This document shows, one piece after another, positions 1 through 52,974 of a stretch of 64,000 bases of DNA. Origin of the DNA: Okamejei kenojei (taxonomy: Eukaryota); assembly GCA_035221665.1 (NCBI GenBank), contig CM069137.1, positions 79,050,001-79,114,000 on the forward strand, given 5' to 3'. Position 1 is the first letter of the stretch; every line of letters starts with the position of its first letter. The notes beneath the pieces are model-generated. The model made no database searches, was not told the origin of the DNA, and worked only from the letters and a program-made list of their open reading frames with translations. The translations under genes were made by a program, and so were the position numbers.

Positions 1-660
1 CATCTACCATTTATCTGTCCATTTTTGTAGCTGAATTATATCCTGCTACATAGGTTGACAGCCTTCCTCACAGTCCACAACTCCAGCAATCTTGGTGTCA
101 TCTGTAAACGCACTAACCAACCTGTCCATGTTTACGTCCAAGTCATTTATGACAAACCGTTGTCTCAGCACAAATCCCTGTGGAACTCCACTGGCCATGC
201 ACCTCCTATGCACCTCCACCTTCCACCACAACCCTGTCTTCCAACAGTAAGCCTTATCCAAATCAATATGACCAAGTAACTGATAATCCCGTGTACCCAA
301 ATCTTCTGGATCAGCCAACCACTGGGAACTTTATTCAACTTTATGATGTCTCATGCAGACAACATCCAGTGACCTACCTCTCATTCAGCATCTTCATCAG
401 CTCCTCAAAAAATGCGATCTAGTTAGTAAGACCTGACCTACCACGTAGGAAGCCATACTGACTGTCCCTAATTAACCCATCTCTTCCAAATGGGAGCAAA
501 TCCTATCCCAACGAATTCTCTCCAATAGCTTCCATACCATTGACATCAGGGTCATCAGCCTATAATTCCCTGGATTCCCTTTACTTCTCTTCTTAAATAA
601 AGGAACAACATTAGCTACTCTCCAGTCCTCCAGGATCCTGCCTGTGGCTTTATCCCAGGA
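1..660 (-). mobile_element. CR1 LINE RT fragment
   Basis: DWRVANVVPLFKK..KGNPGNYR; SGVPQG; INDLD; DDTKI. Confidence 0.9.
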
Positions 661-664
661 TCGA

Positions 665-935
665 ACAGTCAAACATTAGAGGGGTAGGTCTAAAGGTGAG
701 GAGAAAAGTTTAAAGATGTTACACGAAGAGTGGTGGATGCCTGGAACCTGCAGTCAGGGAAAGTGGTGGAAGCAGATACAATAGGAATGTTTAGGAGGCA
801 CTGAAATAGAAAGATAAACAGGCAGGGAATGGAGGGAATACAGACCACATGCTGGCAGATGGGATTAGTTTAGATTGGCACCATGGTTGGTATAGGGATG
901 GTGGGGCATAGGGCCTGTACATGTTCTATTATTCT
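665..935 (+). mobile_element. CR1 3'-end fragment
   Basis: gagtggtggatgcctggaac...gtggtggaagcag and a gggcctgt-type 3' UTR. Confidence 0.75.
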
Positions 936-1164
936 ATGGTAGCCCAAAGACTTGCTAGTCATGCACCACTGAAGTTCTGATGATGCAGGATCATCAGAGT
1001 GTTACTACACACCAAAACAGACTATGTCACGCTGTCCCACGCTGTAATGCATCTATCATGCTATCTCCCATATACCTGGCCCGACCATTGCTCCCAATGC
1101 CTCTCTGTGCCTTCCTCGCAAGGCACACTGCCACACAGCTTTGCATCATCAGGAAGACATATAC

Positions 1165-1420
1165 TCATGTTATAGGAGCAGTATTAGGCCATTCGGCTCA
1201 TTGAGTCCACACCATCATTCAATCATGGCTGATCTATCTTTCCCTCTCAACCCCATTCTCTTGCTTCTCCCCATAACCACGGATACTCTTACTAATCAAG
1301 AATCTGTCAATTTCCACCTTAAACATTTCCATTGACATGCTCTCCACAGCTGTCTGTGACAATAAATTCCATAGATTCACCACCCTCTGACTAAAGAAAA
1401 ATATCTCCTCGTCTCCTTTC
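1165..1420 (-). mobile_element. CR1 3'-end fragment
   Basis: FFSQRVVNLWN..SQTAVE ORF2 C-terminus and 3' UTR. Confidence 0.8.
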
Positions 1421-1705
1421 TCTGATGATGGGACACAACTGGCAACCAATCAAAGCCTCAACCTGTTGTGAGTGTTCAGACTCTGACTCTCTGCATCTCG
1501 CCTGAACCAGTGTGGAGTTAGGCAGCTGGATTTAAATGGGAGCCATGAGTTAATATAACCCAGGTCCCATTTCTGAATCTCCAGGCAAATTTCAAGCTCA
1601 CACACATACTATTTTCTCAAAAACTGTCTCTCCATTCTAGCTGGGCAAACCTTTATGACTGCAAAGGAATAGACAATAATTGGAATGGAGCTGAATAAGG
1701 AAACG

Positions 1706-2362
1706 CAAGAATCATAGAGTGATACAGTATGGAAACAGGCCTTTTGGTCCAACTTGCCCAAACCGACCAACATGCCTCATCTACACTAGTCACATCTGCC
1801 TGTGTTTGGCCCATATCCCTCTAAACCTGTCCTATCCATGTACCAGTCCAAATGTTTCTTAAATGTTACGATACTACCTGCCTCAACTACCTGCTCCAGC
1901 AGCTCATTCCATACACCCACCACCCTCTGTGTGAGAAAGATTCCTATTAAATCTTTCCCCCCCTCACCCTAAACCTATGTCCTCTGGTTCTCAATTCCCT
2001 TATTCTGCACAAGAGACTCTGTGCATCTAGCCAATCTATTCCTCTCATGATTTTGTACACCTCCTCGTTTGATCACCCCCTCATCCTCCTGTTCTCCAAG
2101 GAATAGAGTACTAACCTGCTCAAGCTCAATCTCTCCCTATAGCTCAGGCCCTTGAATTCTGGCAACATCCTTGTGAATCATTTCTGCACCGTTTTCATCT
2201 TGACAACATCTTTCCTACAACATGGTGCCCAGAATTGAACACAATATTCTAAATGCGGCCTCACCAACATTTTATATAACTGCAACATGATCTCCCAACT
2301 TCTATACTCAATACTCTGACTGATGAAAGTGCCAAAAGCATCTTTGACCACCCTATCTACCT
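1706..2362 (-). mobile_element. CR1 3'-end fragment
   Basis: 3' UTR aaacaggcccttt...; ORF2 C-terminal coding remnant. Confidence 0.85.
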
Positions 2363-2512
2363 GCGGTCACGCCAGATAAAAATGGTCAAGGAAGAAAACA
2401 GCAGTTGATTGGAAGAATGTGGGATGCATTAGAATGACTGTGCAGTTGGGATATCAAGGAAAGGCCGTAAAGATCAATCTTGCAAACGGAAAGCATAAAT
2501 GTAGCATTCATT

Positions 2513-2820
2513 AGGGTGGCATGGTAGCGCAGCGGTAGAATTACAGCGCCAGGGACCCGGGTTCTATCCTGACTATGGGTGCTGTTTGTGCGGAGTTTGT
2601 CCGTTTTCTCTGTGAACTGCGTGGGTTTTCGCCGGGATCTCTGGTTTCCTCCCACACTCGAAAGATTTACAGGATTGTAGGTTAATTGGCTTGGTATAAA
2701 TGTAAATTTCCCTAGTGTGTGTATGATAGTGTTAGTATGCGGGGATCGCTGGTCGGAGTGGACTCGGTGGGCTGGAGGACCTGTTTCCGCTCTGTATCTC
2801 TAAGCTCAACTAAACTAAAG
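2513..2820 (+). mobile_element. tRNA-derived V-SINE (HE1-like)
   Basis: A box tagcgcagcggtaga, B box gggttctatcc, central gagtttgt...gtttcctcccaca domain, CR1-derived tail ending (ctaaa)n. Confidence 0.85.
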
Positions 2821-3322
2821 TTCACTTGTTCTGAATGCCCAACTTTGAAAGCGAACACAAAGGTAGCACACCAAATTGTGGAAAGTATTGTTGACAGTAA
2901 ATTACACAACAGCATTTTCCATTCTGTGGGCAACTGCACGTCACACTATTTGGCACAGTCTTACAAACAAATAGCAAATATCATATCAACGTTATTACAG
3001 GCCTTCTCAGAAATGTACTTTAATATTTGCTTTCTACATTGACCTACTGAGTAACAAAGGAACACAAACGTCTTTCATATCCTGTCACTTCTGAGAACTG
3101 ATAACGATTCCATACGCAGAAATTCACAGAGCAAATTCCATTAAATGTGTAAGCATCAAATTATTCCTTGAGGTCTGACCACACGTCTGACTCAGGCCAT
3201 CAGAAAGCAGTCAGAAGATGTTGATCGCCCTGATTGGAAAAACAGTTGTTTTCAACTTTACTCTAAATAATAACTGATGCATTTTCCTAAAGTGTTACTA
3301 CCTAATCAGTGAATGGAGTTAC

Positions 3323-3631
3323 CATTCCATGGTGGTCCATGTTGAATCAGAGTGTCTGCTGCATTAGCATCATGGTCCCAGTTTGCGGAATCACAGCTGG
3401 TGGCATGGAGATGTCTTTGCTGAATAGGGTTGCTGGAAGCTGTTGAGAGCTGGCAAGCCTGGTTGACAAGTGACTTGGATGGAGAACTATGCCTTCCCAG
3501 GATCTCTTTGTCACATTCCATATTTATTTTATCATCTGTTGCCATTAGATTCTCAGTGCTGTCATCATTGTTCTGGTGTTGGTCATCATTCTCGTTTTGT
3601 TCTGTAGTCTCCCTTGTTTTTTCTTCTGTAT
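3323..3631 (-). CDS. PDE1A: Candidate PDE1A C-terminal exon (309 nt, phase 1-1): DTEEKTRETTEQNENDDQHQNNDDSTENL...HGPPWN(G); alternatively reads through to TGA at 3306
   Basis: Strong acceptor (poly-T tract then gctag); open frame compatible with the phase-1 end of the 15553 exon; possible donor gtaact; non-repetitive acidic low-complexity sequence. No homology I can recognise. Confidence 0.6.
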
Positions 3632-3705
3632 CTAGCAAAAAAAAAATTTAAGGAAAGAAAAAGAGAATATCTATGATGACGATTAAGAAAATAAACATTG
3701 ATCTT

Positions 3706-3945
3706 TAGTTTAATTTAGTTTAGAGATATAGCGTGGAAACAGGTCATTTTGCCCATCGAGTCCACACAGACCAGCAGTCATCTGGTACAATAGCTCTAAT
3801 CTACACACTAGGGATAATTTCCAGGAAGCAATTAACCCTCAAACCTGCACGTCTTTGGAGTGTGAGAGAAACTGGAGCGGTCACAGGGTGAACGTATAAA
3901 CTCCACACAGACAGCACCCAAAGTCAGGATTGAACCTGGATCTTG
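3706..3945 (-). mobile_element. HE1-like SINE
   Basis: (tttag)n tail and central domain in reverse orientation. Confidence 0.8.
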
Positions 3946-4114
3946 AGCATTCACTGCATATAGCCCCACTCATTCTTCTGGGCCTACTTGTGTCTATCCA
4001 CAGGAACTACAGTGGGCCTAAACATATTACCTCTTTTTTTATTTTAATTACTATAAAACAACATTTGGAATGCTCCTCCTGGCCCAACTTTCTCGGTGAG
4101 AAATGTTGTTTTTC

Positions 4115-5519
4115 AGTTTAGTTTATTGTCGTGTGTATAAAATACAGTGAAAACCTTTTTGTTTTTTGTTGTGTGCTGATCAGTCAGCAAAAAGACAATA
4201 CATGATTCCGATCAATCCATTTCCAGTGTATAGATACATGATGAGGGAACAGCGTTTAGTGCAAGGTAAAACCAGCAAAGTCCAATCAAGGATAGTCTGA
4301 GGGTCATCAAAGAGGTAGATAGTAGTTCAGCACTGCTCTCTGGTTGTGGTAGGATGATTCAGTTGCCTGATAATAGCTGGGAAGAAACTGTCCCTGAATC
4401 TGATGGTTAGCGTTTCCACACTTCTATACATTTTGCCTGATGGGAGAGGGAAGCAGAGTTGCCAGGGTGCGACTCATCCTTGATTATGCTGCTGACCTTG
4501 CCGAGGCAGCGTGAGGTAGAAATGGAGTCAATAGAAGGGAGGTTGGTTTGTGCGGCGGTCTGCGCTGCATCCACAATTCACTGCAATTTCTTGCAGTCTT
4601 GGATAGGGCTGCTCCCAAACCAAGCTGTGATGCATCCTGATAAAATGCTTTCTATGATGCATCTGTAGACATTGGCGAGAGTTGTAGGGGAAATGCCAAA
4701 CTTCCTAATGGGCCTGCCCCACTTTAGGCGAATTTTCTGGCGACTGCCGGCGACTGCCAAGTTGCCAGCGGTCACCTGAAAAACCAGCAACTGGAACGGC
4801 GACTGTTAGAGTGGAACACACACACACACACACATCGCTTCATTCACCAGCCCGTAATGCAGGCTGGGGACAGGGCAAGCAGGGGGAGTGCTGTCTGAGT
4901 GAATTTGCACGGTGATACCGCTATGAACAGGAAGGTTGGCGCTGTAATTAAGACGGGTAAAGCACAGTGTACGATAAGCCCTTCAAAAGAGGGAGGGAGA
5001 GGGTGGGGGGGAGAGGGAGCAGAAGGAGGGAGAAGGGGGGAGAAGGGGGGAGAAGGAGTGGAGACAACTTTTAAGAAGCCAGAGATGCACGGCTGTGAAG
5101 CTCGGCGGACATTTCACATTACCGGTCGGTTATCCTTGGTCTGAAAGCTACTGCTCACGTTTTTTTCCCCAATGAGCCAATGAAATTCACCGGTCAGCAC
5201 TGGCTACAACCTACGAGAACCTTCGACCTCCTGGCGACCCTCTAGGACCTCCTGGCGACACCACCTACGGCACGAGAATTCTCGCTGCTCTCCATGGCGC
5301 CTTCATTCTAGTCGCCGCTAATTTTTCAACATGTTGAGAAATTCACGGTGACCATAATAAGACCGCGACTAGTTCCCAGAATGCGGGACCATGAAGGCGA
5401 TTCCCAGGCAACCACCCGCGAACATATGGCGACCATGTGGCAACTGAATAGTCTCCTGCAGTCGCCTAAAAAGTTGCCTAAGTGGGACAGGCCCATTGGC
5501 CTTCTAAGGAAGTAGAGGA
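4115..5519 (-). mobile_element. L2/Rex-Babar-type LINE 3' fragment, split by a MITE
   Basis: RKFGISPTTLANVYRCIIESILSGCITAWFG; the LINE sequence resumes at 5498-5519 after the insertion. Confidence 0.75.
4709..5495. mobile_element. Non-autonomous DNA transposon (MITE), probably PIF/Harbinger
   Basis: ~45-bp imperfect TIRs (tgggcctgccccactttaggcg... and ...cctaagtgggacaggccca); flanks taa/ttg resemble a TWA-type TSD; no ORF. Superfamily is an inference. Confidence 0.75.
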
Positions 5520-5933
5520 TCAAGTATGCTTATTGTTACACATCTCCTGTTTGTCTCCTAGCCCAGAGTATCTACAAACTAACCCCCAAATGCAGAGCTC
5601 CATTGGGATGTCTATTGGCACCCTACACCATGCCATGAGTATCCAGATAATGCCACGCACTCTCTTGTGCATCTCCTGTTCTGGGTGAAAATTTCAAGCC
5701 TTTGGCCGATGACCAAATTTTTAGCCCTCAAACTTTTCTGCGTGTGTGTTTTTTTGCATAAAAAATAGTTACCCAGCTCCCTATTGGAAAACTGGGAATG
5801 TGTTTCAATTCACAAAAGCTTTTGCCTGTTTATGTTTTGGAAACATAGCGTTTATCCACTCAATGAATGTCAGTGGTAGGGAAACAGGCATTTGTCAATC
5901 TCATGGATCAAGTGTCAACAGCAAATACGTATA

Positions 5934-6430
5934 GAATCACAGAGTCGCAGTCATACAGTGCGGAAAAAGGCCCTTCAGCCCAACTTGCCCACACCGACGA
6001 ACATGTCCCATCGACACCAGTTCCACCTACCTCCATTTGGCCTATATCCCTCTAAACCTGTCATATCCATGTACCTGTCCAAATGTTTCTTAAACATTGT
6101 GATATTACCTGCCTCAACTACCTCTTCCGGTGGCTCGTTCCATACACCCGCCACCCTCTGTGTTAAAAAGTTACTCCTCACGTTCCTATTAAATATTCTC
6201 CCCCCCCACTTTAAACCTATGTCCTCTGGTTCATGATTCTCCTATTCTGGGCAATAGACTCTGTGTGCCACTTGATCCATTCCTTTTATGATTTTGTACA
6301 CCTCTATTAGATCACCTACACGGTTACAGGGAGAACATGCAAATGCCACATAGACAGCATCTGAGGTCAGGATTGAACCCGGAACTCTAGTGCTGTGAGG
6401 CAGCAGCTCTATCAACTGTGCCACTGAGTT
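5934..6430 (-). mobile_element. CR1 3' end joined to an HE1 SINE 5' fragment
   Basis: RSNFLTQRVAGVWNE..EEVVEAG; SINE head at 6320-6430. Confidence 0.8.
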
Positions 6431-6767
6431 GCTCTAATTGAATGGCACCTTGGTGGTGATCCTGTACTATGTGGATGCAGAATGTCCCTTTCACCCTATG
6501 TCCCTACCTACCATTTTGAGCCAAGCAGAGGCACAGATGTGGCACTGGCTGTGGCAAAGCAATAAAAGAGCGTTGTCTGACACTCGAGCGAGAAAGCGAG
6601 CCAAGTATAATTTTACTGCGGAGTCATGTGAGTGACTTCGTGAAGACCCCGCCAGCACGCATGCGCGGCATATCGTCGCGCGCATTCGGCAGGCTGAGGG
6701 GGGACTGCGCTCTCTCCTCCGGCTCCTTCATAAGGCCGGTAGGTAAGTATTGCTTTTACTCCACAGG

Positions 6768-8563
6768 ATGGACAAAGGCAAGAAGAAGGCATCGCTGTCG
6801 AGGAGCCGAGCCTCGACCAGCCAAAGGCCCTTGTCCCCGGAGCTGCAAGCAACACTGGCAGCTTTGAGGCATGTGGGGGCTGGATTGCGGAAGTCGGGCG
6901 CTCCCGCTGATTCAGGGGCCGACTCACCCGAGTGGTTTATCGTGCCGGAGCTGGATATGGATCCAGACTTCGTGCCCCCTTCCCCCAAGAAAAGAGGGGG
7001 AAAACAGGTACGTGGCAAGGGGTCTCGCTTTCCACAAGCAACCCCTCCCCGAGCTCCAGAAGACCCGAGGGGGCTGGGCCGGGGGACAGCTGCACGACAG
7101 GGGAGCCCTGCAAATGTGCAAAACGTACCACAGCCAGGGAATCTGCCGTAGTGCAGTCTGGCAACATCACTGCTGCGTCGAGTAGGCCTGCTGGAGCAGA
7201 TACCGCCGACAACACACACCGTCAGGCTGCGGTCAAGGGCGGAGGTGGCAGCAGGAAGCGGTCGGTCAGCTCAGCTCTGGGTGCGGCAGACCATGCGCCT
7301 CCACGCCAAAAGATGGGCAAGTGTGGAGGTAAGCCTGCACGGACTCCGGGGAGCCAGGTTTCGGGGACCGGCGCCGATTCAACTCACCTGCCTTCATATC
7401 AGACAGGTGGGCCGCCACAGTCTGGGAGAAGACAGACTAGCGGAGAGTCCGTGCGGGAGTCGTATGATCCTACTTGGGCTGTAGGTCACGACGACCTGCC
7501 ATTGGACCCTAAACAGCACCCTAAGGGGGTGTGGTCCGATGGTGGAAGCCCCAGTGATTTTGCAGGGCCTGGGGAAGTCGGCTTGTCCGCTGCAGATAGC
7601 AGGGACGGTTGCATTGAGCGGTTGGAGCTCTTAGTGGAGCAACTCCTCCAGCGGGACCGGGAACGAGAAGAGCGGGACTCGCGGGCATCCACTAGCCGTG
7701 CAAGGACACCACTCAGCACCTCATCGTCTCCAGCCAGAAGCATGAGTGATTGCCCAGCTGCTGCGTTTGAAGACGACCCGGGACAGCCAATGACCGCTGA
7801 GCCAGAGCATGAGGAGGATATGCTGGAAGTGGTGAGTAAGTTTGCCGCTACCACCCAGACAGGTGAACCTCTGCACCACAAATTGGCGGGCACCATTGAT
7901 TACCTGACTACGCACCAACATCAGAGTCAGGTTCTCAATGATACCTTGGAGAAAATAAAACCGCCCGAGAACTGCATCAACCTCAGTGTGCCCTTGGTTA
8001 ATGCCCAGATCTGGGGACACTTGAGTACGGCCACAAGGATGCAGGATGTCCGCCTCCAGCGTATCTTAAAAGTTCTCTCCACAGGCATAACGGCGTTTGC
8101 TAGGACCCTGGACGGGGATAATGTGTCCAGTGAACAGCAAGATGCACTGGCACTCCTATGCAACGCCCAATATGAAATAAACTGCCTGCGTAAGAGCTCC
8201 ATAAAGCCCACACTCAAGCCCAAATTCGCGGGGTTGTGTCGACCATCAACCGCTCCACCGCCGCATCAGTTATGCGGAGACCTGTCCAAACAGGTGAAGG
8301 AGTTGGACAAGGAGGCCAAAACAGCGGGCCTCATGAAACCTCCGTCAACCAGAATTCACCCATATCACCGGCAACAGCCTAATACAACTTGGAAACCACG
8401 GCTGCCGGATAGGGCACAAAGACCCTACCTACCTCCATCGCATCAAACACAACGACCTTTATTAGGGCAAGGCCAACAGCGGCCTGCATGGAAAATGCAG
8501 CCGCCGCCCCGTCAACCTCCACAACCTCAACCCAAAACACCGTACGTACGGAACCGCCGTTAA
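6768..8563 (+). pseudogene. DIRS ORF1 (gag-like), probably with one frameshift near 7100-7150
   Basis: ATG at 6768 (MDKGKKK...) frame stops at 7151; the overlapping frame runs to 8563 with typical DIRS ORF1 content (PENC..L.VPLVN..IW, D.RLQ, P/Q-rich tail). Confidence 0.75.
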
Positions 8564-8565
8564 CC

Positions 8566-10491
8566 ATGGAGGTAAGGGGGTCTGGTTCTTCTCACGCCGT
8601 AGCATCTTCTCCCGCACGAATAGGTGGGCGATTACGGGCTTTCTTGGACATATGGAAAACTGTCACCACAGATGAGTTTATTTTACAAAGTGTTCAAGGA
8701 TATGTTATAGAATTTATTGGAGGTATAAATCCCCCTACTCAACATTCGCCTCATAGGAAGTTTTCTCTATCCCAAAAAGAGGTAGAGGCAGGCCATGCTG
8801 AAATTATACGGCTAGCAGAAAAAGGGGTAATTGGCAAAACCGAGCATGAACCTGTTGAGTTTGTGTCTAATATTTTCACCAGAATTAAAAAAGATGGGGG
8901 ATGTCGGATTATAATAGACTTAACTGAGTTGAACACTTTTGTACAATATACCCATTTCAAAATGGATACTTTAGAAACAGCTAGGCAGATGCTTTACCCA
9001 GGGTACTTTATGGCATGCATCGATTTGAAAGATGCATACTATACGGTGCCCATTGCTGAGGCTCACAGGAAATTTCTGAAGTTTGTCTGGAAGGGTCAAT
9101 TATGGGAGTACAAGGCATTACCCAATGGAATCACCACAGCCCCTAGGCTGTTTACCAAATTGGTAAAACCTATATTGGCTCTTCTCCGCTGACAAAATTA
9201 TATGGTAATGGCATATTTGGATGATATTCTTATAGTAGGGCAGACCCTCCAATTGGCAATTCAAGGAGTGGCTGCAACCAAGGCTCTGTTCGAGAAGTTG
9301 GGGTTTGTAATCCATCCAGACAAATCAAAATTGCACACGGTACGGGTTATGGATTATTTGGGGTTCACTCTAGACACCAAATTAATGAAGATTACCATCC
9401 CAACTAATAAAGCTCCTGCTATAATAGAAGAGTGCCACAATCTTGCTTGCGCCAGGGTACCAACTATTCGGCAAACAGCAAAAGTTATAGGCAAATTGGT
9501 AGCTACATTCCCAGCTGCACAATTCGGACTTCTACACTACCGAAATTTACAAAGATCAAAAATCATCGCATTAAAAACAAATGCTGGGCACTTTGATCGG
9601 CCAATTCGGTTACCACCGGAAGCTAGAAACGAGCTACAATGGTGGGTTGACAATATTAGAGAGTGTCATAGACCCATCATAGTAAGCAACCCAGATGTTG
9701 TGCTACAAACTGACGCAAGTGCACAAGGCTGGGGAGCCACTGATACGATGTCCAGTTGTGGTGGCAGATGGAACTCTCATGAGTCTACCTTCTTGGAGTC
9801 ACATGGGAATAAATTATATAGAAATGCTGGGGGCATTTCATGGATTGCGGGCTTACTGTACTAATTCACGGGATTTACATGTCCACCTTCAAATAGATAA
9901 TACTACAGTGGTGGCTTACATCAATCATATGGGTGGTATCAGGTCGCTATCTTGTGATGAATTGGCTAATACAATTTGGCACTGGTGCATTGAAAGAAAT
10001 ATTTGGATTACTGCGACCTATTTGCCTGGGAAGCTTAATACAGTTCCAGGTCACGAGTTTTCAATGACAACATCGAGTGGATGTTGAACCCCCAAATTTT
10101 TGGAGATATTATAGCTCATTTTGGGACACCAGATATTGACCTATTTGCGTCCAGGCTGAACCATCAGATGCCAACGTATGTGTCATGGGAACCAGACCCT
10201 GGGGCATTAGCAATGGATGCATTTTCTATCCATTGGGGGAAATGGTTTTGCTACGCTTTTCCCCCATTTTGCCTCATCAGTCGGGTATTGCAGAAAATTA
10301 AACTGGACTCTGCAACTGGCATATTGATCATTCCCGACTGGCCTACACAGCCATGGCACCCGATGGTCATTAAAATTTTAAAACAACCATGGATGGCGAT
10401 TGGGAAACACCCCAAATTGATTACTCACCCCATTACGGGGGTTAGTCATCCTTGCCATGGTCATTTAAACTTGTTGGCCTGCAGGTTTTGA
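8566..10491 (+). pseudogene. DIRS ORF2: reverse transcriptase, RNase H and DNA adenine methyltransferase-like domain
   Basis: RT motifs IDLKDAY, LPNG...AP, YLDD; RNase H TDAS..GWG, DNTTVVAYIN; MT-like DLFASRLN, YAFPPF. Broken by TGA at 9190 and frameshifts near 9810 and 10045. Confidence 0.9.
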
Positions 10492-11513
10492 AAAGACCAC
10501 TCATCCGGGCATCTTCACGAGCCATAGACCTTATCGCCGCATCATGCTGAGAGTCAACTCGGAAACAGTACCTCACCCAGATCAGAAAGTGGGAGGCATT
10601 CTGTGCCCGGACCAACAAGTCTTCAAACTCAGCAACAATACCAGATGTCCTGGAGTTTCTAGCGGGCCTCCATTTCGATGCTGGCCTCAGCTACAGTGCC
10701 ATTAACAGCGCCAGGAGTGCGCTGCCCTCATACCTGGATATAGGTATCAGCTCCAACCACCTGGTGTCTAAACTAATGAGGGGAGTGTTCAACACCAACC
10801 CTCCACGACCCAGATATACAGTAACCATATAACCATATAACCATATAACAATTACAGTACGGAAACAGGCCCTCTCGGCCCTTCCAGTCCGTGGACCATT
10901 TATTTCCCCTAGATCGTGCTGACCCTACTTAGGAGCTGGGCTCCAATGGATGAGCTACCACTGAAACAGCTCACCCTCAAGGTGGTGATGCTGATGGCAC
11001 TGACTACAGCCCAACGAGTCCAGACGTTACAAAAACTGCGATTGGACAGCATGGTGGCCACCCCTGGTCAAATAAATTTCTTTGTCAAAGAATTATTAAA
11101 ACAGCACAGGCCAGGGGCGCATGGGCTGCAGTTGGAATTTCGGGCGTACCCTGTAGATGCCACTCTCTGCATAGTCACCCATCTCCACCACTACATCCGA
11201 GTTACTGAGTATCAGGATGAAGGAACAGGGGCTCCTCATCAGTCATAAACCTCCGCATCATCGGGTGACTACACAGACTATCGCCAGGTGGCTCAGGGTG
11301 GTGCTGGATGCAGCAGGAGTTGCTACTGACATCTTTAAGTCTCATTCCACCAGGGCTGCATCCACATCAGCGGCGAGGGCCATGGAGGTGCCCATGGACC
11401 ACATTCTTGCCACGGCGGGTTGGGCCAGTGAAGAAACCTTTCAATGGTTCTATAACAAGCCACTGGTCGCCCCTGCGACATTCGCAGAAGCTATCCTGGG
11501 AACCGCTCAGTGA
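10485..11513 (+). pseudogene. DIRS tyrosine recombinase
   Basis: STRKQY...W..FC, AQRVQTL, HSTRAAS, AGW.SE.TF..FY motifs. Broken by TGA at 10548, a CR1-tail insertion and a frameshift near 11215. Confidence 0.88.
10822..10912 (-). mobile_element. Very short CR1 3'-end insertion with (AACCATAT)n tail, inside the DIRS YR gene
   Basis: Matches the 3' end of the CR1 at 49180-49255 and the copy at 46053-46220. Confidence 0.8.
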
Positions 11514-12794
11514 ATGTCTGTCCCCGAATTAGGGGTTATTTGTTGTTTATTTGATTAATAAATTGTGTTGATTTTTCAGCCAGTTTCGATTGAACTCCAT
11601 TAACAGCCTTCCTCCATCAGAATGGCGGCAGTGTGATAAGCATGGACGTTGTCCAGGGTGTGAAATCACAGAGCTTTGAAATCTTCACGAAGTCACTCAC
11701 GTGACTCCGAAGTAAAATAGTAAGATTAAACGAGAACTTACCAAGTTTGAAGGTTGATCTGTATTTTACGAGGAGTCGCGGTGAGGGATTTCGTGCCCAC
11801 CGCTCCCACCCTCTATCATAAGGTCAACCAGGTAGTTCTACGTTTTCATCTTGCTATTTTTTAGTCATGATTTGTTTTCTGTGATTCCACACCGCTGCTT
11901 TGAAGGATGCCGCGCATGCGTGCTGGCGGGGTCTTCACGAAATCCCTCACCGCGACTCCTCGTAAAATACAGATCAACCTTCAAACTTGGTAAGTTCTCG
12001 TTTAATCTTACTATTTTTATGCACACATTTCTTCCACCGTCTCCCACCACCCAGCGGGCCTCCTTCCCTTACCTCCATATGCCATCTCCCATCCCCATCC
12101 CATATTTCTCTTTTATCTCCATCTTTCATTGTTTTATCTGGGGCATATGACAATAAAACATTCTTGACTTGACTCTTCAATATTGAGAAATGAGGAGAAA
12201 CAGGGAAATCTTGGAATGTATGCCCACAGATCCTCAAAGGTTGTAGAACAGATCGATAAGGTGGTTTAAAATGCGTAGAGGGTGTTTTTCTTCATTCACT
12301 GGGGCATAGCCAGTGTAAAAGCCAGAAGATTGTTGTTAAAATATTCAGGACCATTAACATTTAAACATAAATCTCTAGTTGATGGGTCTTGAAATTTTGT
12401 TACGACAAATTTGGTAATTAATTTCAAAATATTTCTTGATTTCAGAATAAGAAAACATCCAGTTAATGGCATAAAAGTAGGACATTTTGTGGTGAAAGTT
12501 ATTTTTACTCGAGTTATGTAATAGAAATAAAATCTATCTGCGACCAACTGTGCTGCTATGTTGCTGCTCTAGTCTCATTTTCTCTAAACTCTAGAGATGA
12601 GTGTGTGAGGTGCAAGTTGAACCAGGTTGAAGCATAATGCACACAGAAAATGTCCCTTCAATTCCCTACTGGGCAAAGGACAAGTGCTTTTCACAATTAA
12701 ACACACGGGAACAGAAAATAAATCATCAAAAATTAGTGTAAAACTATTCCATGGATTTAGGAGATACAAGGATTCCAAGGATTTAGGATTTAGT

Positions 12795-12897
12795 GTCAGT
12801 CTGAAGAAGGCTCTTGACCCGAAACATCACCCATTCCTTCTCTCCAGAGATGTTGCCTGTCCCGCTGAGTTACTCCAGCATTTTGAATCTATCTTCA
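12795..12897 (+). repeat. Penelope-derived terminal repeat with hammerhead-like core
   Basis: ctgaagaaggctcttgacccgaaacatcacc followed by the family body cctgtcccgctgagttactccagca. Confidence 0.7.
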
Positions 12898-13549
12898 GGG
12901 AAATAAAATTTACAGTTTTTCAAGCCTGGTTAAGATTCTATGCAACGAGCCATTGCATTCGTGAAGAGCTACTTCTGGAGAGTATTAATAAAGCCCAGAG
13001 AGCAAAATGGTCCAGGTCTCCCACAGTTAGATAATTGTCTGGCAACTCAGTAGTTAAACTTGGTCCCAGCTTCTGTACCAATCACATAGTCACTTACTGT
13101 GAGAGATTTAGCATCAACTAGTTAAAGATTACATTTACTGACATCATCACATCATCAAAGCATATGACGTGCTCTTCCTGGAAAATTAAGCAATGGTCTT
13201 GATGGTTCATTAGTAAAACTAATCTCTGTCTGGTGACCAGGATCAAGGCAATTACAATCAACCAGCATGTAAAGATCCATTGAAGCATTAAATTCAAATT
13301 CCACAAAAATTAAACTTTATTGTGGCGCTTTCAGAGTATGCTTCACCCAAAACACCACGTCTGCTTGCCCTTTGCATCCAAGCCCATCTCCACTCTGTGT
13401 TGTGTTTTTAATCATTAACAAACTATTGCATTCTCCAATCTAGATAGTCTGTAGTTACTTTCATACAGGAGAAACTGTATTTAATTGCTTGTAGAATAAT
13501 TTAATTTAATCTATTTTATGTACAAGAATATGTAGGTTGTTTGCATAGC

Positions 13550-13658
13550 GGGGTGGGAGATTGTAACCTTCACGTGGTCCGCCCTGTTTCAACGAATCCA
13601 ATCAACCTGGCGTGTCCTACAACTTTAGGCTGTGCACGCTATACGCAAGAAGAAGAAG
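13550..13658 (+). mobile_element. 109-bp non-LTR retroelement 3' fragment with (GAA)n tail
   Basis: Flanked by a perfect 10-bp TSD tttgcatagc (13540-13549 and 13659-13668). Family not identified. Confidence 0.75.
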
Positions 13659-13899
13659 TTTGCATAGCTCTATACGGTACAGACAAAGACGGCTATACAT
13701 TTGCTATTTGCCATTTAATGTTAGCTAATGACAATGGAGGTGATACTTATGTTGATGCCATTGACTTAATGCAGATGGAAGCAGTCATGTGCAGAACTGG
13801 ACAACAGACAATAACAAATCATCAGTTTTATTTTGCACGCAGCTCAATTTACCTTAAATGAAAAAGAAAATCAGGGAAGTAAAAATGCTGAAAAAAAGA

Positions 13900-15055
13900 C
13901 GAAGTGCTGGAGTAACTCAGGCAGCAATTGTGGAGAATATGATAGGTGACATTTCGGTTGGTACCTTTCTGTCCGAAGAATCAATCAGTCTGAATAAGGG
14001 ACCCAACCCGAAACGTCACCTATCCATGTTCTCCCGGGACGCCATGTGACAATAGACAATAGACAATAGGTGCAGGAGTAGGCCATTCGGCCCTTCGAGC
14101 CTGCACTGCCATTCAATGTGATCTTGGCTGATCATCCCCAATCAGTACCCCGTTCCTGCCTTCTCCCCTTATCCCCTGACTCCGCTATTTTTAAGAGCCC
14201 TATCTAGCTCTCTCTTGAAAGCATCCAGAGAACCTGCCTCCACCGCCCTCTGAGGCAGAGAATTCCACAGACTCACCACTCTCTGTGAGAAAAGTGTTTC
14301 CTCGTCTCCGTTCTAAATGGCTTACTCCTTATTCTTAAACTGTGGCCCCTGGTTCTGGACTCCCCCAACATCAGGAACATGTTTCCTGCCTCTAACGTGT
14401 CCAAGCCCTGAACAATCTTATATGTTTCAATGAGATCTCCTCTCATCCTTCTAAACTCCAGAGTGTACAAGCCCAGCTGCTCCATTCTCTCAGCATATGA
14501 CAGTCCCGCCATCCCGGGATTAACCTTGTAAACATACGCTGCACTCCCGCAATAGCAAGAATGTCCTTCCTCAAATTAGGGGACCAAAACTGCACACAAT
14601 ACTCCAGGTGTGGTCTCACTAGGGCTCTGTACAACTGCAGAAGGACCTCTTTGCTCCTATATTCGATTACTCTTGTTATAAAGGCCAACATGCAATTCGC
14701 TTTCTTCACTGCCTGCTGTACCTGCATGCTTACTTTCATAGACTGATGTACAAGGACCCCCAGATCCCGTTGTACTTCCCCTTTTCCCAACTTGACGCCA
14801 TTTAGATAGTAATCTGCCTTCCTGTTTTTGCTACCAAAGTGGATAACCTCACATTTATCCGCATTAAACTTCATCTGCCATGCATCTGCCCACTCCCCCA
14901 ACCTGTCCAAGTCACCCTGCACTCTCATAGCATCCTCCTCACAGTTCACACTGCCACCCAGCTTTGTGTCATCTGCAAATTTGCTAATGACCTGCTCAGT
15001 TACTCCAGCACTTTGTATGCTTTTCTCAGTGAGCCAGCATCTGCAGTTCCTTGCT
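13900..15055. repeat. Inverted pair of Penelope-derived repeats interrupted by a CR1
   Basis: Minus copy 13903-13970; plus copy starts at 13988 and resumes at 14988-15055 after the CR1. Confidence 0.7.
14047..14988 (-). mobile_element. 5'-truncated CR1 LINE with (GACAATA)n tail
   Basis: LGEWADAWQMKFNADKCEVIHFG...LVRPHLEYCVQFWSP; little divergence from a typical CR1 ORF2. Confidence 0.92.
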
Positions 15056-15552
15056 TCTAGGTTAAAATGCTGATTTCCCTACAGCCCAATTAGGGTTACC
15101 ACTGATATCTTGAGGTTAGATAAGACTCCTTCCATGGTTCCCACCCCCCTGCCAAACTAAGTTGAACTTTCCCCAGTAACACAGGACGATGAGGTCTAGT
15201 AATCCCGACATTATTATGTTCAAGGACTAACTTTTTAATCACTTTCCTGGCGCTGTAAAATCTGCTTGCATGGCCTTGCCCTTATCTTTCCTTACCTTCA
15301 CGGCTCGTAACATATATGTCAGAAATTAGACAATGGAAATCTCACAAGCTACTCACCAGTCAGCTGCCTGTTATAATTTTTCAAACTCTTTCAAACCCTT
15401 GTCTTTTACTCAGTTAACACTGATAACTTCACAGATTAAAGTGGGATAGATACCTTAAATTCTGGATGTTCGCTGGAGTAATAACCAGAAACCTTAAAAG
15501 ATTAATGTTTGTATTGACGGCACAATTAGATTCCAAAATGAGCTCCACGCAC

Positions 15553-15741
15553 CTTGAATTGCCAGCTCTTTCCATTTTTCTTTATTTTGCTGAATTATGT
15601 CCATCCAGTTCAACTTAAAGCATTTGAGGTCCACTGTAGATACCAAATACTCTGTGGAACAGCCTCCATCTGATGCAAAGCTCCTTACGCTGTGCCTTCG
15701 GGTTGAGTCTGGAGTTGGTTGCTACTCCAATATTGGTAAGA
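15553..15741 (-). CDS. PDE1A: PDE1A exon (189 nt as assembled, with an apparent +1 frameshift): LTNIGVAT / TPDSTRRHSVRSFASDGGCSTEYLVSTVDLKCFKLNWMDIIQQNKEKWKELAIQ
   Basis: Acceptor ttttgttaaag, donor gtgcgt. The 3' part matches recalled PDE1A VDLKSFKNNLVDIIQQNKERWKELAAQ, but that frame is offset by one base from the phase-2 entry frame. Confidence 0.85.
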
Positions 15742-16249
15742 CTTTAACAAAACCAAAAGATATTTGTGTTAATTGTCCAGACAAAGAAAATGTTTAAATC
15801 TTAGGTCATTATTTAACAAGGGTGTCCAAAGTAGTCTAAAATAAGGTCATAAGGTCATAAGTAATATGAGCAGAATTAGGCCATTCGGCCCATCAAGTCT
15901 ACACCGCCATTCAATTGTGGCTGATGTATGTCTCCCTCCTAACCCCATTCTCCTGCCTTCTCCCCCAAACCCCTGACAATCATACTAATCTGGTAACCCG
16001 TGCTAAAATAGGGAGTATTAAAAGTGGGCAAAAAGTGTTGGAATAATTCAGCAAGACAGGTAGCATCTCTAGAGAATGTCAGAAGAAGGGTCCCGACCCA
16101 AAACATCATCTATCCATCCATGCTCCAGTGATGCTGCCTGACCTGCTGAATTACTCCAGCACCTAGTGTCCTTTTTGTAACTCCAGCATCTGCAGTTCCT
16201 TATATCCACAATGTTAAAAGTGGGTTGAGTATACAATTAGCTTCTGTAA

Positions 16250-16620
16250 TGACCCAATGGTTTGAACATTGATTTCGCAAATTTCAAGGAACCCCGTCAT
16301 TCCTTCCCTCCCCCCTCCCTCACCCTAGTTGTCCTACTAGTTCCACTGTTCGCATTCTTGTATCCCTTCATTATCACCTCTTACCCAACCAACAATGGGC
16401 CATTAAAGGCTCCATCCTTCCTTGGTCATCTGTTGTCAGCTCTGCTTTGCTCTGACCTTCTCCCACCTCCAGTTCCCCTCCTCTACTTTCAGCCTGAAGA
16501 AGCATCCCGACCTGAAACGTCACCAATCCTTTTTCTCAATGATGCTGCCTGACCCTCTGAGTTACACCAGCACTTTGTGTCTATCTTCAGTATATTCCAG
16601 CACCTGCAGTTCCTTTCTAC
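16250..16620 (+). mobile_element. Penelope-like element 3' end (GIY-YIG C-terminus plus terminal repeat with hammerhead core)
   Basis: PNGLNIDFANFK end of the endonuclease; ctgaagaagcatcccgacctgaaacgtcacc at 16494-16524. Confidence 0.7.
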
Positions 16621-36965: not shown

Positions 36966-37066
36966 CTGGTTTGAATGTGGAAGTTATTTGTGGTCCCTGT
37001 ATGCTCATAGTCATGAATGGCGGCAGCAAAGAGCATGGCTAGGATATCCAGTTCTGTAAACCAGTG
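36966..37066 (-). CDS. PDE1A: PDE1A exon (101 nt): HWFTELDILAMLFAAAIHDYEHTGTTNNFHIQT(R)
   Basis: Acceptor tctgttgcag, donor gtagga; HDxxHxGxxN metal-binding signature. Confidence 0.96.
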
Positions 37067-41242: not shown

Positions 41243-41383
41243 CATAATGCCAGTGTGGAGCATGAGATAATGCACGGTCTGGGCCACATCTGCTGCATGG
41301 ATTAAGTTATGGTAAGGATTCTTGTACTTGCTATAACCTGCCTCCAGGGCTTCAACAAAAGTTATTAGTGAAGACACAGGGAT
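41243..41383 (-). CDS. PDE1A: PDE1A exon (141 nt): IPVSSLITFVEALEAGYSKYKNPYHNLIHAADVAQTVHYLMLHTGIM
   Basis: Acceptor tttttatatag, donor gtaaga; contains the class I PDE YHNxxHAAD motif. Confidence 0.96.
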
Positions 41384-42065
41384 CTATATAAAAAAAATAC
41401 TTGAGATTAGGAGACGGGGTAGCATGCATTCAATCACAAACTTTAAATACTGTTACAAAATATTAAGATTCCAAAACCAAGCACTGTTAATAAACAAATG
41501 TTAAAATTCATTGTTGGTCATTCAAATACTTGCCAATCAATAATAATTTAAAGTCCATAAAGAAACTTGCACAAACAATAAAAGATCATTAGTTGTTTAA
41601 AACAACAATAAACAGCTAATATTTTTACATGTCTATATATGTGGACTAGATACTTCTAAAAGCTCAATGACAGTTAATTAAAATACCACATAATTAATTT
41701 GATAAGAATTTTTCAATTAACTTACTCTGTCCAATTCACAATTATTCTCCAGAAAGAGATTAATATTATGAAATAGCTGACATTCTATAGCCTATTATAT
41801 ATTACTGTTGGGAAAAAGGCATGTTTGACTCAATTAGTTTGGAATTAAGAACTGATTAGTGTTTGATAGTTTTGTATTGGCAATTTTGCATGCTTATTAG
41901 GCAATATCAGACATTTGCCATAGACATTGCAATTTTATACTACATTTTAATCTACTACTTTTAGTTTTCTTGTTTTCAGCCATAGGCATTAACCTTACAT
42001 TGAATCCGCAGGGGTGCTACCAATTTTCTAAAACACAGCTTTTACACGTATTTAATAAAGCAAAT

Positions 42066-42365
42066 TTTAGTTTTAGTTTAGTTTAGTTTAGTTTAGTTGA
42101 TATACAATGTGAAAACAGGCCCTTTAGTCCACTGAGCCCACTCTGACCATCGATACACTAGTTCTATGTTTTCTCACTTTAACACTAGGGACAATTTACA
42201 GAAACCAAGTAACATACATATTTAGGTTATAGCAAGTACAAGAATCCTTACCATAACTTAAACCTGCATATTTTTGGAATGTGGGAGGAAACCAGAGTAG
42301 ACAGAGAAACCAATGGAGTCACGGGGAACTCCACACAGACAGCACCCGGAGTCAGGGTCAAACCC
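42066..42365 (-). mobile_element. HE1-like SINE carrying a 38-nt exon-derived insertion
   Basis: (tttag)n tail and SINE body, interrupted at 42220-42261. Confidence 0.8.
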
Positions 42366-43954
42366 AATCTCCACTGCACCTGTATCCACCCATCACTTGC
42401 CAGGCTATGTCCCACCCATCACTTGCCGAGCTATGTCGCACCCAGCTATTGTTTCTCCGCTACTACAATCAGACGTGGAAGGGTTTTGACCTTAAACACT
42501 GTCTATCCATGTTCTCCAGAGATGCTGCCTGACCAACAGGGTTGCTCCAGCACTTTGTGTCTTTCCTCCAACAGTCTTGCTGACCCTGGGTCGGAAATTG
42601 ATCACTGTTGCTTGTTAACTATTGACGACTCAGAGATGAGAACTGAGAAATCCTGCAGCCATTGATCTATTGACAGCAGTTTGGAAGATTAGGACTTCCT
42701 CACTCAAGTATTTACTGCCATTAAATAAGCTCACCCTAAATCCTGAGAATCGTTAAATTTAATGATGTCAAATTCATTTAAGTTACCAGGCTTAAGAACA
42801 CTAGCTTCTGTTTGCCTGAGTGGTTACAGGGCTGATCCAAAGGTTTGAAGAGCACAGACATGATTCTTTGTCCTCTCACAGGCAATTCTAATAACCCACT
42901 AGAAATGTGTGTGAAGGACACCAGTGAATGTATGGATTTTCTTTCTAGTATAGTGTATTAGCAAGTGAGACATTATTGTACTTGCTCAGTCCTCCGATGA
43001 TCAATACGTAATCTAGGTTGGCCAACACCGAATAAAGCTTCTGGCGCTAATAACAAAAACTTCATTTAGTTTAGAGTGTTGAGATCAATGTGCATTTGCT
43101 ATTTAGGGAGACAGTCTTTGTTATTTGATCTATTCCACATGTTCTTTGATCCGCATTCCCTTTGTCCTGTTTTCACACCTCACACTTCCTTATCTTTACA
43201 CTTCCTTACCTATGTGCCTCCCACTCCCCTGACATCAGTCTGAAGAAAGGTCTCAACCCAAAACGTCATCTATTCCTTCTCTCCGGAGATACTGCCTGTC
43301 CCGCTGAGTTACTCCAGCATTTTTTGTCTATCTTCGAATTAAACCAACATCTACAGTTCCTTCCTACACAGTCTTTGTTATTTGACATCTGATTTTAAAT
43401 GTTGACAGTGGCTGACCTTGGAGCACTGCCATTTCGGTGAGTCCGCTAAGTATTTTGGACTTGTATTTCTCAGCCTGATTTTAAAAAAACATGGCAGTGA
43501 TTATAATGTCTGCCATGCTCAGTACTGCATCAGCATCCACCCGGTTCAAAGTGTCCACAGAAGCAAAACGACACAAAACAAGAGGAAAAATCTGTAGAAA
43601 CCTAATCCTAACACAAACTATATTCTACTTTATCCGCTGAACGTGTCTGCGTAGTCTTTCGGTGATAGGGTTTTAATCCCACAGTTCCAGGGTTTTATTT
43701 GTTGATGCCAGGGAATGTTGCATCATCGTGTACATCTGTTGTCTAATGTCTGCCAGAATGAATAGATTATTTTTAAGTAGATATTATTCATGATAAACTA
43801 ATTACATACATTACAATGTCCTGCATTTGATGGGCTGCCACATACATTTGGATTAAAACCTGGTAGATTTAACAAGAGTTTTTGTGTTGGTATTGACTTT
43901 TGTTAACCATTGGATTTATTTTAATTTAATACGAAGCTGTAAAAGTGTCCTGAC

Positions 43955-44071
43955 CCTGAAGCGATTGATAAGGTCGTATCGGGTGAACAGCTCATGCACG
44001 ATGAACTTCAGTGCGTGGTCTCCACTGGCTTCATTGAGTGCGAACACATTAAATGACCACTTATCAACATC
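43955..44071 (-). CDS. PDE1A: PDE1A exon (117 nt): DVDKWSFNVFALNEASGDHALKFIVHELFTRYDLINRFR
   Basis: Acceptor ctcccacag, donor gtcagg; phase 0-0; separated from the previous exon by a 91-nt intron. Confidence 0.95.
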
Positions 44072-44162
44072 CTGTGGGAGAGAGAAGAGATAGAAAATGT
44101 AGTCAAATTGGTCAATTCTTCCCAACCTCATCATAAGTTTTAAAATGAGTGTTGCCACACAC

Positions 44163-51495: not shown

Positions 51496-52974
51496 CTGGT
51501 GAAGAAACAGAGAATAGAGCTTCACACCTGGAGCTTCCGTCCCTAAAGAAACAGTAAGGCACAAACTGCCCGTTGAGTACTTTGATAATTTAGCTTGAAT
51601 ACTAGAGCAAATGAGCTGTCTGAAAGAAAGAAAGTAAATCTTTCTTCAAAATTACCTTAATTATGACCAATATTCTAGAATGGGTTAAAATCCCTGCCTT
51701 GTGACGCATTGATATCTTTTTTTTTAAATTGTGTTTCCTCCTTCTCCTTATTGAGTGCAGTAACCTTTTTTTTTACAAATATCACAGACATATTTTAATT
51801 ACATGATATTTTAATCATCAAGCCAAATTGTTTTCCGGGTCAGCACGCTTCATACTGTTCCATTCAATACGTACTGTAACTGTTATTCTGTTAACAATAA
51901 TTACATCATGATTTTACTTCGGAGTCACGTGAGTGACTACGTGAAGAAGCCCCGCCTGGCGCATTATTGGCATTACATCGACGCTGACGGCAGAGCAAGA
52001 GCTGCAGAGGCAGCTCCTCTACAGCGGTAGGTACGGGCCCGCAGGTAAGTACAGTTGCATTACTTACAGGGCATGTCCAAACTCCGTGGCTGGTGTATAG
52101 AGCCACTAGGAGTTAAAAAGAAACGGAATTTAAAAGAAAAAAATAATATAAAAGTCCGGGTGGAAAAAACGGAGTTTAAAAAGCGTCCCAGGGGAAAACT
52201 CAGTGATCGGGACGGCAGATTAGTGCGGAGCCGGTTCCGATACCGGTGGCCGTTAAAATTAACGTTAGGGAGACTTTAGTTGCTCCACAAACTTTTGGCT
52301 ATGAGGAAAAACGGAGTTTAAAAGTTAAAAATAAAAGAAAATACTCCGGGGGAAAAAACAGAGTTTAAAAGTTAAAAAGAAAAGAAAAAACTCCGGGTGG
52401 AAAAACTCCAGTGGGGAGGAAAATATTTAAAAAAGTCAGAGAGGCCATGATTCAAAAGTTCTAATAAAAAGGCTTCCAGACAAAAAAGCTTTATGGCTTA
52501 AAATTAATGGAGAAAGACTCCAAAAATAAAAAAAATAAAAATTCAACCAAAGGATTTAAAAAGGCCCAGAATATTCCCAAAAACAGACCCTGAGGGGTTT
52601 CCATATATTAATATATATGGTGGAATTTATCAATGTGGGAATATCTACCTCGGATTGTTTTGGAGGTAGTCTACTTGAGGAAAAACTCAGGAGTAACCAG
52701 GGCAGTAAAAGAATATGAAAAAAAACTGACCCTACAGGTGCATTGATACTGGTGGCTGGTCATAAAGTACCCACCACAGCACAAATATATATACAGGTGT
52801 ACTAGGTACGATACCTGAATGAAGGAGTGAGGCCATGGAAAGTAACCATGGAAACCAAAATTAATTGGTCTCTCACCAAAGCTGTTATGGTTGAAACAGC
52901 AGAGTTATTGATAAAACTTTTGTTGTTTGGCATGTGGATTCAGGGATAGTATCAAAGCAAAGGATGATGCGTAC

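Follow-up and report, generated by a model that had tools for sequence, protein, structure and literature searches.

The PDE1 exon and its neighbours

The window, the whole 64-kb stretch of DNA analysed here, carries on its minus strand part of a gene for a class I phosphodiesterase with a PDEase_I domain, which as judged from its sequence is PDE1, the family to which it is closest, and which we take, from its residues, to be the PDE1A paralogue. The coding exon at the centre of this study (41243–41383 on the minus strand; 141 nt long and in phase 0 at either end) lies at the start of the catalytic domain. Its ends are given by spliced contigs, as are those of the upstream coding exon (43955–44073, minus strand) and of the downstream coding exon (36966–37066, minus strand), which bears the HDxxH metal-binding motif and matches Pfam PF00233 above the cut-off (E 5e-11). 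The 141-nt exon alone matches the start of the same Pfam family below the cut-off, and its best PDB matches are catalytic domain structures of PDE1B (E 2e-16). One paralogous PDE1 exon was found elsewhere in the genome (L152, G000:C4:115918298–115918438), with 72% protein identity.

Within the exon, the segment 41302–41339 (minus strand) encodes YSKYKNPYHNL (in the context G-YSKYKNPYHNL) and includes the histidine of the YHN motif; it has 16 adenosines on the transcript strand. The corresponding histidine of PDE4D, His160, is the proton donor according to the accessible part of PMC12839185, and the motif suggests that the two residues are equivalent.

An antisense copy of the exon in the preceding intron

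The intron upstream of the exon in the transcript contains, at 42224–42261 (minus strand), the exact reverse complement of 41302–41339. All 38 positions correspond and 884 nt separate the two arms; a match of this length would be expected by chance in a 64-kb window with a frequency of ~1e-13. A pattern search allowing up to three mismatches placed the 38-mer at only these two positions in the 2.76-Gb genome. The perfect antisense copy reported in the preliminary description is thus upheld, and the search rules out a SINE subfamily that bears the 38-mer. BLAST stretches the match between exon and intron to 46 nt at 95.7% identity. An origin from the paralogous PDE1 exon was also ruled out, since 11 of the 38 positions differ. 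No antisense arm was found near the neighbouring exons or the paralogous exon, where the longest antisense match is 10–11 nt; the absence of an arm within 4.9 kb of the paralogous exon rules out an ancient, family-wide structure.

Anatomy of the insertion in the host SINE

The intronic arm lies inside a SINE at 42099–42365, which we presume to be HE1-like and to lie on the minus strand. HE1 elements are mentioned for elasmobranchs in the portion of PMC2911107 that was available, and a repeat of this type would make the organism a cartilaginous fish. The host element is a high-copy dispersed repeat with 48 matches in the genome search, 30 of them given as loci, and it is against the 29 loci other than the window's own that the site was assessed, its ancestral state being judged from these sister copies elsewhere in the genome. 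The site is empty in all 28 of the sisters that could be aligned. Against their majority line the window's SINE shows an insertion of 42 columns and is otherwise identical at 119 of 139 positions (85.6% outside the insert). The copy therefore interrupts the SINE as first described, but the net insertion is 42 nt (42218–42259) rather than 38, and was made without loss of SINE bases.

The inserted sequence has two parts, as seen directly in the alignment to the empty copies: ~6 nt that repeat adjacent SINE bases, and the exon copy. The extra 6 nt stand at the left junction (42218–42223, plus strand) and belong to a 7-nt direct repeat in which 42217–42223 equals the SINE's own 42267–42273; they probably stem from an initial round of templated synthesis that was aborted. 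The final 2 nt of the 38-nt arm belong equally to the SINE, giving microhomology at the right junction. Here (42260–42268, plus strand) 8 of 10 positions of the SINE agree with the flank of the template (41294–41303), the exceptions being a mismatch and a gap, and an anchored score as high as this was reached at 30 of 4000 random sites. At the left junction no microhomology with the exon template was found. The insert has neither poly(A) nor a target-site duplication of the classical kind, the 7-nt repeat not directly flanking it, and a class 1 TSIP or LINE-mediated retrocopy was rejected on these grounds.

The host SINE differs from the sister majority by 14.4%, whereas the insert differs from the exon at none of 38 positions (P = 0.003 if the two were equally old). 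The insert is therefore the younger, and from these sequences it is likely to be much younger than the element that it interrupts.

Presence in related organisms

Four DNA runs (X1, X3, X6 and X9) and three RNA-like runs were sampled, of 24 runs. The question of misassembly was addressed with public DNA contigs, and the insertion proved real: it is present in two samples of organism A and in its relatives, organisms B and C. The left junction lies within a 70-nt contig in each of X1 and X3 (organism A) and X6 (organism B), with 0, 0 and 1 differences, respectively. The exon contigs of these three runs break at 41310 and at 41331/41339, as a true 38-nt repeat predicts. One of the organism A samples may be the source of the assembly; X3 differs from the window at 41891 and 42007, both in the intron, and so likely comes from an individual other than the one assembled, and it has the insert.

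In organism C (X9), one contig spans the site and the insert is at least in part present. This contig has 40 gap letters, 15 of which could be placed, and organism C therefore cannot lack the whole 42-nt insert. The comparison of organisms has 25 substitutions and 3 gaps beyond those listed, and the changes given here for organism C are at least those listed. Among them is an A>C change at 42241, which would place an A:G mismatch in the RNA stem; the exon contig of organism C is unbroken and has no listed change at the partner position, 41322, and the substitution is thus uncompensated. The insert matches the exon at 38 of 38 positions in organism A and at a minimum of 31 of 31 in organism B.

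Local divergence amounts to 26 differences in about 1062 nt between A and B and 34 in 898 between A and C (2.4–3.8%). Neutral change at these rates would give 1.4 differences in 38 nt between A and C, where at least 1 was observed, and 0.8 in the 31 judgeable nt between A and B, where none was observed (P = 0.47). The substitutions in the arms fit neutral drift and would also fit weak constraint, 38 nt giving little power to separate the two. Outside the paired segment, near the start of the exon, an A>G change at 41376 in organisms B and C replaces Val by Ala.

Predicted stem and observed transcripts

Folding predicts that the two arms pair in the pre-mRNA. The whole 38-bp stem over the exon that had been proposed appears in both the minimum-energy and the centroid folds, with a mean pair probability of about 0.99 in two contexts and a predicted duplex energy of − 61.3 kcal/mol. 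Editing would be non-synonymous at 14 of the 16 adenosines of the exonic arm and could convert the His to Arg. The genome has five loci for ADAR-family deaminase genes (PF02137), taken together without sorting into ADAR, ADAD or ADAT. Skipping of the 141-nt exon would, as stated previously, keep the reading frame. In the predicted structure the stem is inside the exon, with the acceptor 44 nt and the donor 59 nt away and only the acceptor region in the loop; it neither loops out the exon nor covers either splice site. The insert also makes a donor-like site, ATG/GTAAGG (42246–42254, minus strand), that differs little from the donor of the exon itself, ATG/GTAAGA. With a SINE AG 12 nt upstream of it, this might define a stop-containing micro-exon (42246–42264, minus strand).

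Transcripts were assessed in the three RNA-like runs, which come from two studies, have depths of 5.4, 8.1 and 14.2 and do not state their tissues. The runs are not on record as RNA, and X18 and X19 are flagged as 'probably DNA'; we treat all three as RNA, since in each the contigs pass from exon to exon over both introns, with joints at the predicted splice sites, and no retrocopy is seen in the genome. In each run a single contig links 43955 with 41383 and 41243 with 37066, without extra bases. The exon shows 0, 0 and 2 differences in these runs, the listed one, at 41276, being a genomic variant shared with organism C. No T>C change on the plus strand, the counterpart of A-to-G in the RNA, was seen in the majority contigs of any of the three runs, at a depth of 5–14 and in contigs that drop rare variants. 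The joint from 43955 to 37066 expected of skipping is absent among the 15 joints listed (a further 187 being unlisted), and the contigs that include the exon are unbroken in all three runs. The donor-like site and its micro-exon are likewise unused in the three spliced contigs. Majority editing or skipping is therefore absent in the three runs sampled, a result that bounds majority forms only.

Frequency of local copies in the genome

We scanned, in addition to the window, 120 ten-kilobase loci (1.2 Mb), 40 of them beside the window and 80 distributed over 16 contigs, for local copies of this kind, taking each locus by itself. Seven candidates were checked genome-wide, and four were unique, two inverted and two direct. 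The first inverted case (L117:4298–4515/4994–5204; G000:C7:40.004 Mb) is a duplication of 218 nt at 90% identity, adjoined by a second inverted pair of 90 nt, and looks like an older multi-step template-switch event. The second (L090:1584–1641/7622–7679) is a 58-nt copy 6 kb away with sharp edges and 91% identity. The unique direct copies are both non-tandem (L105:5735–5825/6522–6612, 91 nt at 100%; L080:4615–4749/4886–5019, 135 nt at 97%) and are likely to be recent templated insertions. The remaining three candidates (L084, L137 and L140) were dropped as multicopy repeats genome-wide. Candidates outside this genome-wide check were L077, L097 and the second pairs in L117 and L080, together with L100 and L144, which were left out because they looked repeat-like.

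Scaled up from two inverted loci in 1.2 Mb, the genome would have some 4,600 (95% range 560–16,600), and from this ~15–440 cases that copy an exon would be expected by chance per genome, assuming 35 Mb of coding sequence. Both inverted loci are older, at 90–91% identity, and the scan contained no other sharp, perfect and unique inverted copy; young perfect ones are therefore rarer.

Several repeats of other kinds were noted. Those at L137:1156–1342 and L140:7216–7361 are young multicopy direct repeats, often paired about 2.5–6.5 kb apart, as are the LTRs of active retroelements. The window itself has two perfect inverted repeats, at 11714–11795/11936–12017 (82 nt) and 57688–57743/57893–57948 (56 nt), with arms spaced about 140–150 nt apart. 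Related sequence occurs at 6637 and 51911–51962, and these repeats look like the terminal inverted repeats of a young MITE family.

Discussion

The 38-nt copy is a real germline insertion into an older SINE, in our view probably a templated one that has been tolerated and likely has no regulatory role. We reach this reading because the sister SINEs are empty, because of the form of the junctions, because the change in organism C is uncompensated, because the exon is included and unedited in all three runs, and because of the base rate of local copies. Three observations weigh against it to some degree. The insert has been kept in at least three organisms 2.4–3.8% apart, which also fits weak constraint; the predicted stem is very stable, and such pairings, when conserved, are enriched for editing in human in the available text of PMC8052449; and the RNA evidence concerns majority forms at a depth of 5–14.

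The same origin might have been followed by a minor, unselected effect, in which a few percent of transcripts are edited, lack the exon or use the donor-like site in an ADAR-rich tissue. The Q/R site of GRIA2 is one example of an exon–intron editing-complementary sequence (ECS). In NEIL1 a complementary sequence in the upstream intron can direct recoding, K242R, as set out in the accessible part of PMC4053975, and together with the enrichment of editing in very stable conserved pairings (PMC8052449, as available) this makes incidental editing plausible. The pairing probability of about 0.99 and the ADAR-family loci point the same way. The three spliced contigs show neither T>C nor the micro-exon, although they bound majority effects only, and on balance we consider a minor effect unlikely, if by no means far-fetched. 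What is shared with the NEIL1-type ECS, as far as the text of PMC4053975 consulted describes it, is a stretch of intron, lying upstream, that can pair with coding sequence in the pre-mRNA; the duplex predicted here differs in being perfect rather than interrupted, and the arm is young and lineage-restricted, with one uncompensated substitution.

As to origin, the local templating suggested in the preliminary description is supported by sister SINEs that are empty, by an insert in two parts and by microhomeology at the junction, and the junctions make template switching during the repair of a break or fork the most likely source of the insert. The repair would have begun with a break, or a fork that stalled, near 42260, from which a 3′ end was freed; this end may then have annealed some 0.9 kb away, at the interrupted microhomology next to the exon, and been extended by about 36 nt, for which the template would have been the gene's sense strand. 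The other end would have made the short aborted copy of adjacent SINE sequence, and joining of the two ends would have left the 42-nt insertion with every SINE base retained.

Known systems resemble this scheme in part, and are cited here from the accessible sections of the papers. Germline MMB-TIs (MMBIR/FoSTeS, PMC8421209) show microhomeology at their junctions; like the present insert they are short inverted insertions with a nearby template, more than one template and no gross rearrangement. The template search of that study was within 100 bp, whereas here the template is 884 nt off and is a coding exon, and the left junction lacks microhomology. Insertions by polymerase theta arise by multi-round synthesis; their tracts seldom exceed 10 bp, and in the study concerned less than 0.1% of repair used distal templates (PMC7165422, in the sections available). 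A short AT-rich direct-repeat piece taken from beside the break in several rounds recalls these TINS, but only the 6-nt piece fits that description, the main tract being about 36 nt from 0.9 kb. The missing microhomology at the left junction, and a length and distance that exceed the polymerase-theta tracts and the 100-bp range of MMB-TIs as reported in these partial texts, count against a template-switch origin. In the four-point template-switch model, local switches make perfect inverted repeats without selection, according to the portion of PMC5453318 at hand; the event here differs in its second small templated piece.

Alternatively, the patch might have been copied from the gene's own RNA, in the manner of a class 2 TSIP. 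This proposal concerns the origin only; it is compatible with a neutral outcome and overlaps the other readings. Copying that started at the microhomeology end would need the sense strand as template, and the insert resembles class 2 TSIPs, as characterised in the available part of PMC5110952, in being a patch at a presumed break without poly(A) or a classical target-site duplication. However, a single exon contains the whole copy and no splice junction is crossed, so that RNA is not required, and a local DNA template simply explains the distance of 884 nt. TSIPs are moreover reported to be templated from distant regions, whereas the template here is local and the insert is shared between organisms rather than polymorphic in two samples. 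We therefore regard an RNA template as distinctly unlikely. Template switching on DNA remains the reading that we prefer.

The proposal that the insert is an editing or exon-skipping switch is not supported, since the majority contigs of all three runs include the exon without T>C and the change in organism C is uncompensated; for minor isoforms these observations carry little weight. An exapted, selected switch that lowers PDE1 catalytic activity in some tissue or condition would draw on the perfect stem over catalytic codons, on in-frame skipping, on the retention of the insert in three organisms and on the role of the YHN histidine as proton donor in PDE4D (His160, in the consulted part of PMC12839185). 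Against it stand the uncompensated change, the normal majority transcripts and the 15–440 coding copies per genome expected by chance, and we think it very improbable. Furthermore, a perfect duplex would be expected to undergo editing at many adenosines rather than at one site, which also counts against such a switch. It is an equally long shot that a repair accident created an ECS from the exon itself, and that in one clade of cartilaginous fish it now drives tissue-specific recoding, the catalytic His to Arg included, or loss of the exon in frame. The literature on PDE1A editing or recoding, on templated insertion in PDE1A and on editing in cartilaginous fish contained nothing on this locus in the main texts covered, among which subscription papers were scarce. 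An assembly artefact can be practically dismissed, given contigs over the left junction in X1, X3 and X6, the repeat-like breaks of the exon contigs and the X9 contig that spans the site.

If an ECS did arise here, the locus would be a datable case of how exon–intron editing structures come about; and should editing or skipping come to light, it would serve as a natural experiment on the origin of an ECS, since the event, its template and the empty ancestral site are all visible. Taken as a tolerated repair scar, the insert marks a group of related fishes by a clean shared-derived character, and it suggests that lineages can tolerate a perfect 38-bp exon–intron duplex over catalytic codons across two or more speciation events. 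Just beyond the SINE lies a short degenerate tandem repeat (42376–42450), in which organisms B and C differ by several small indels.
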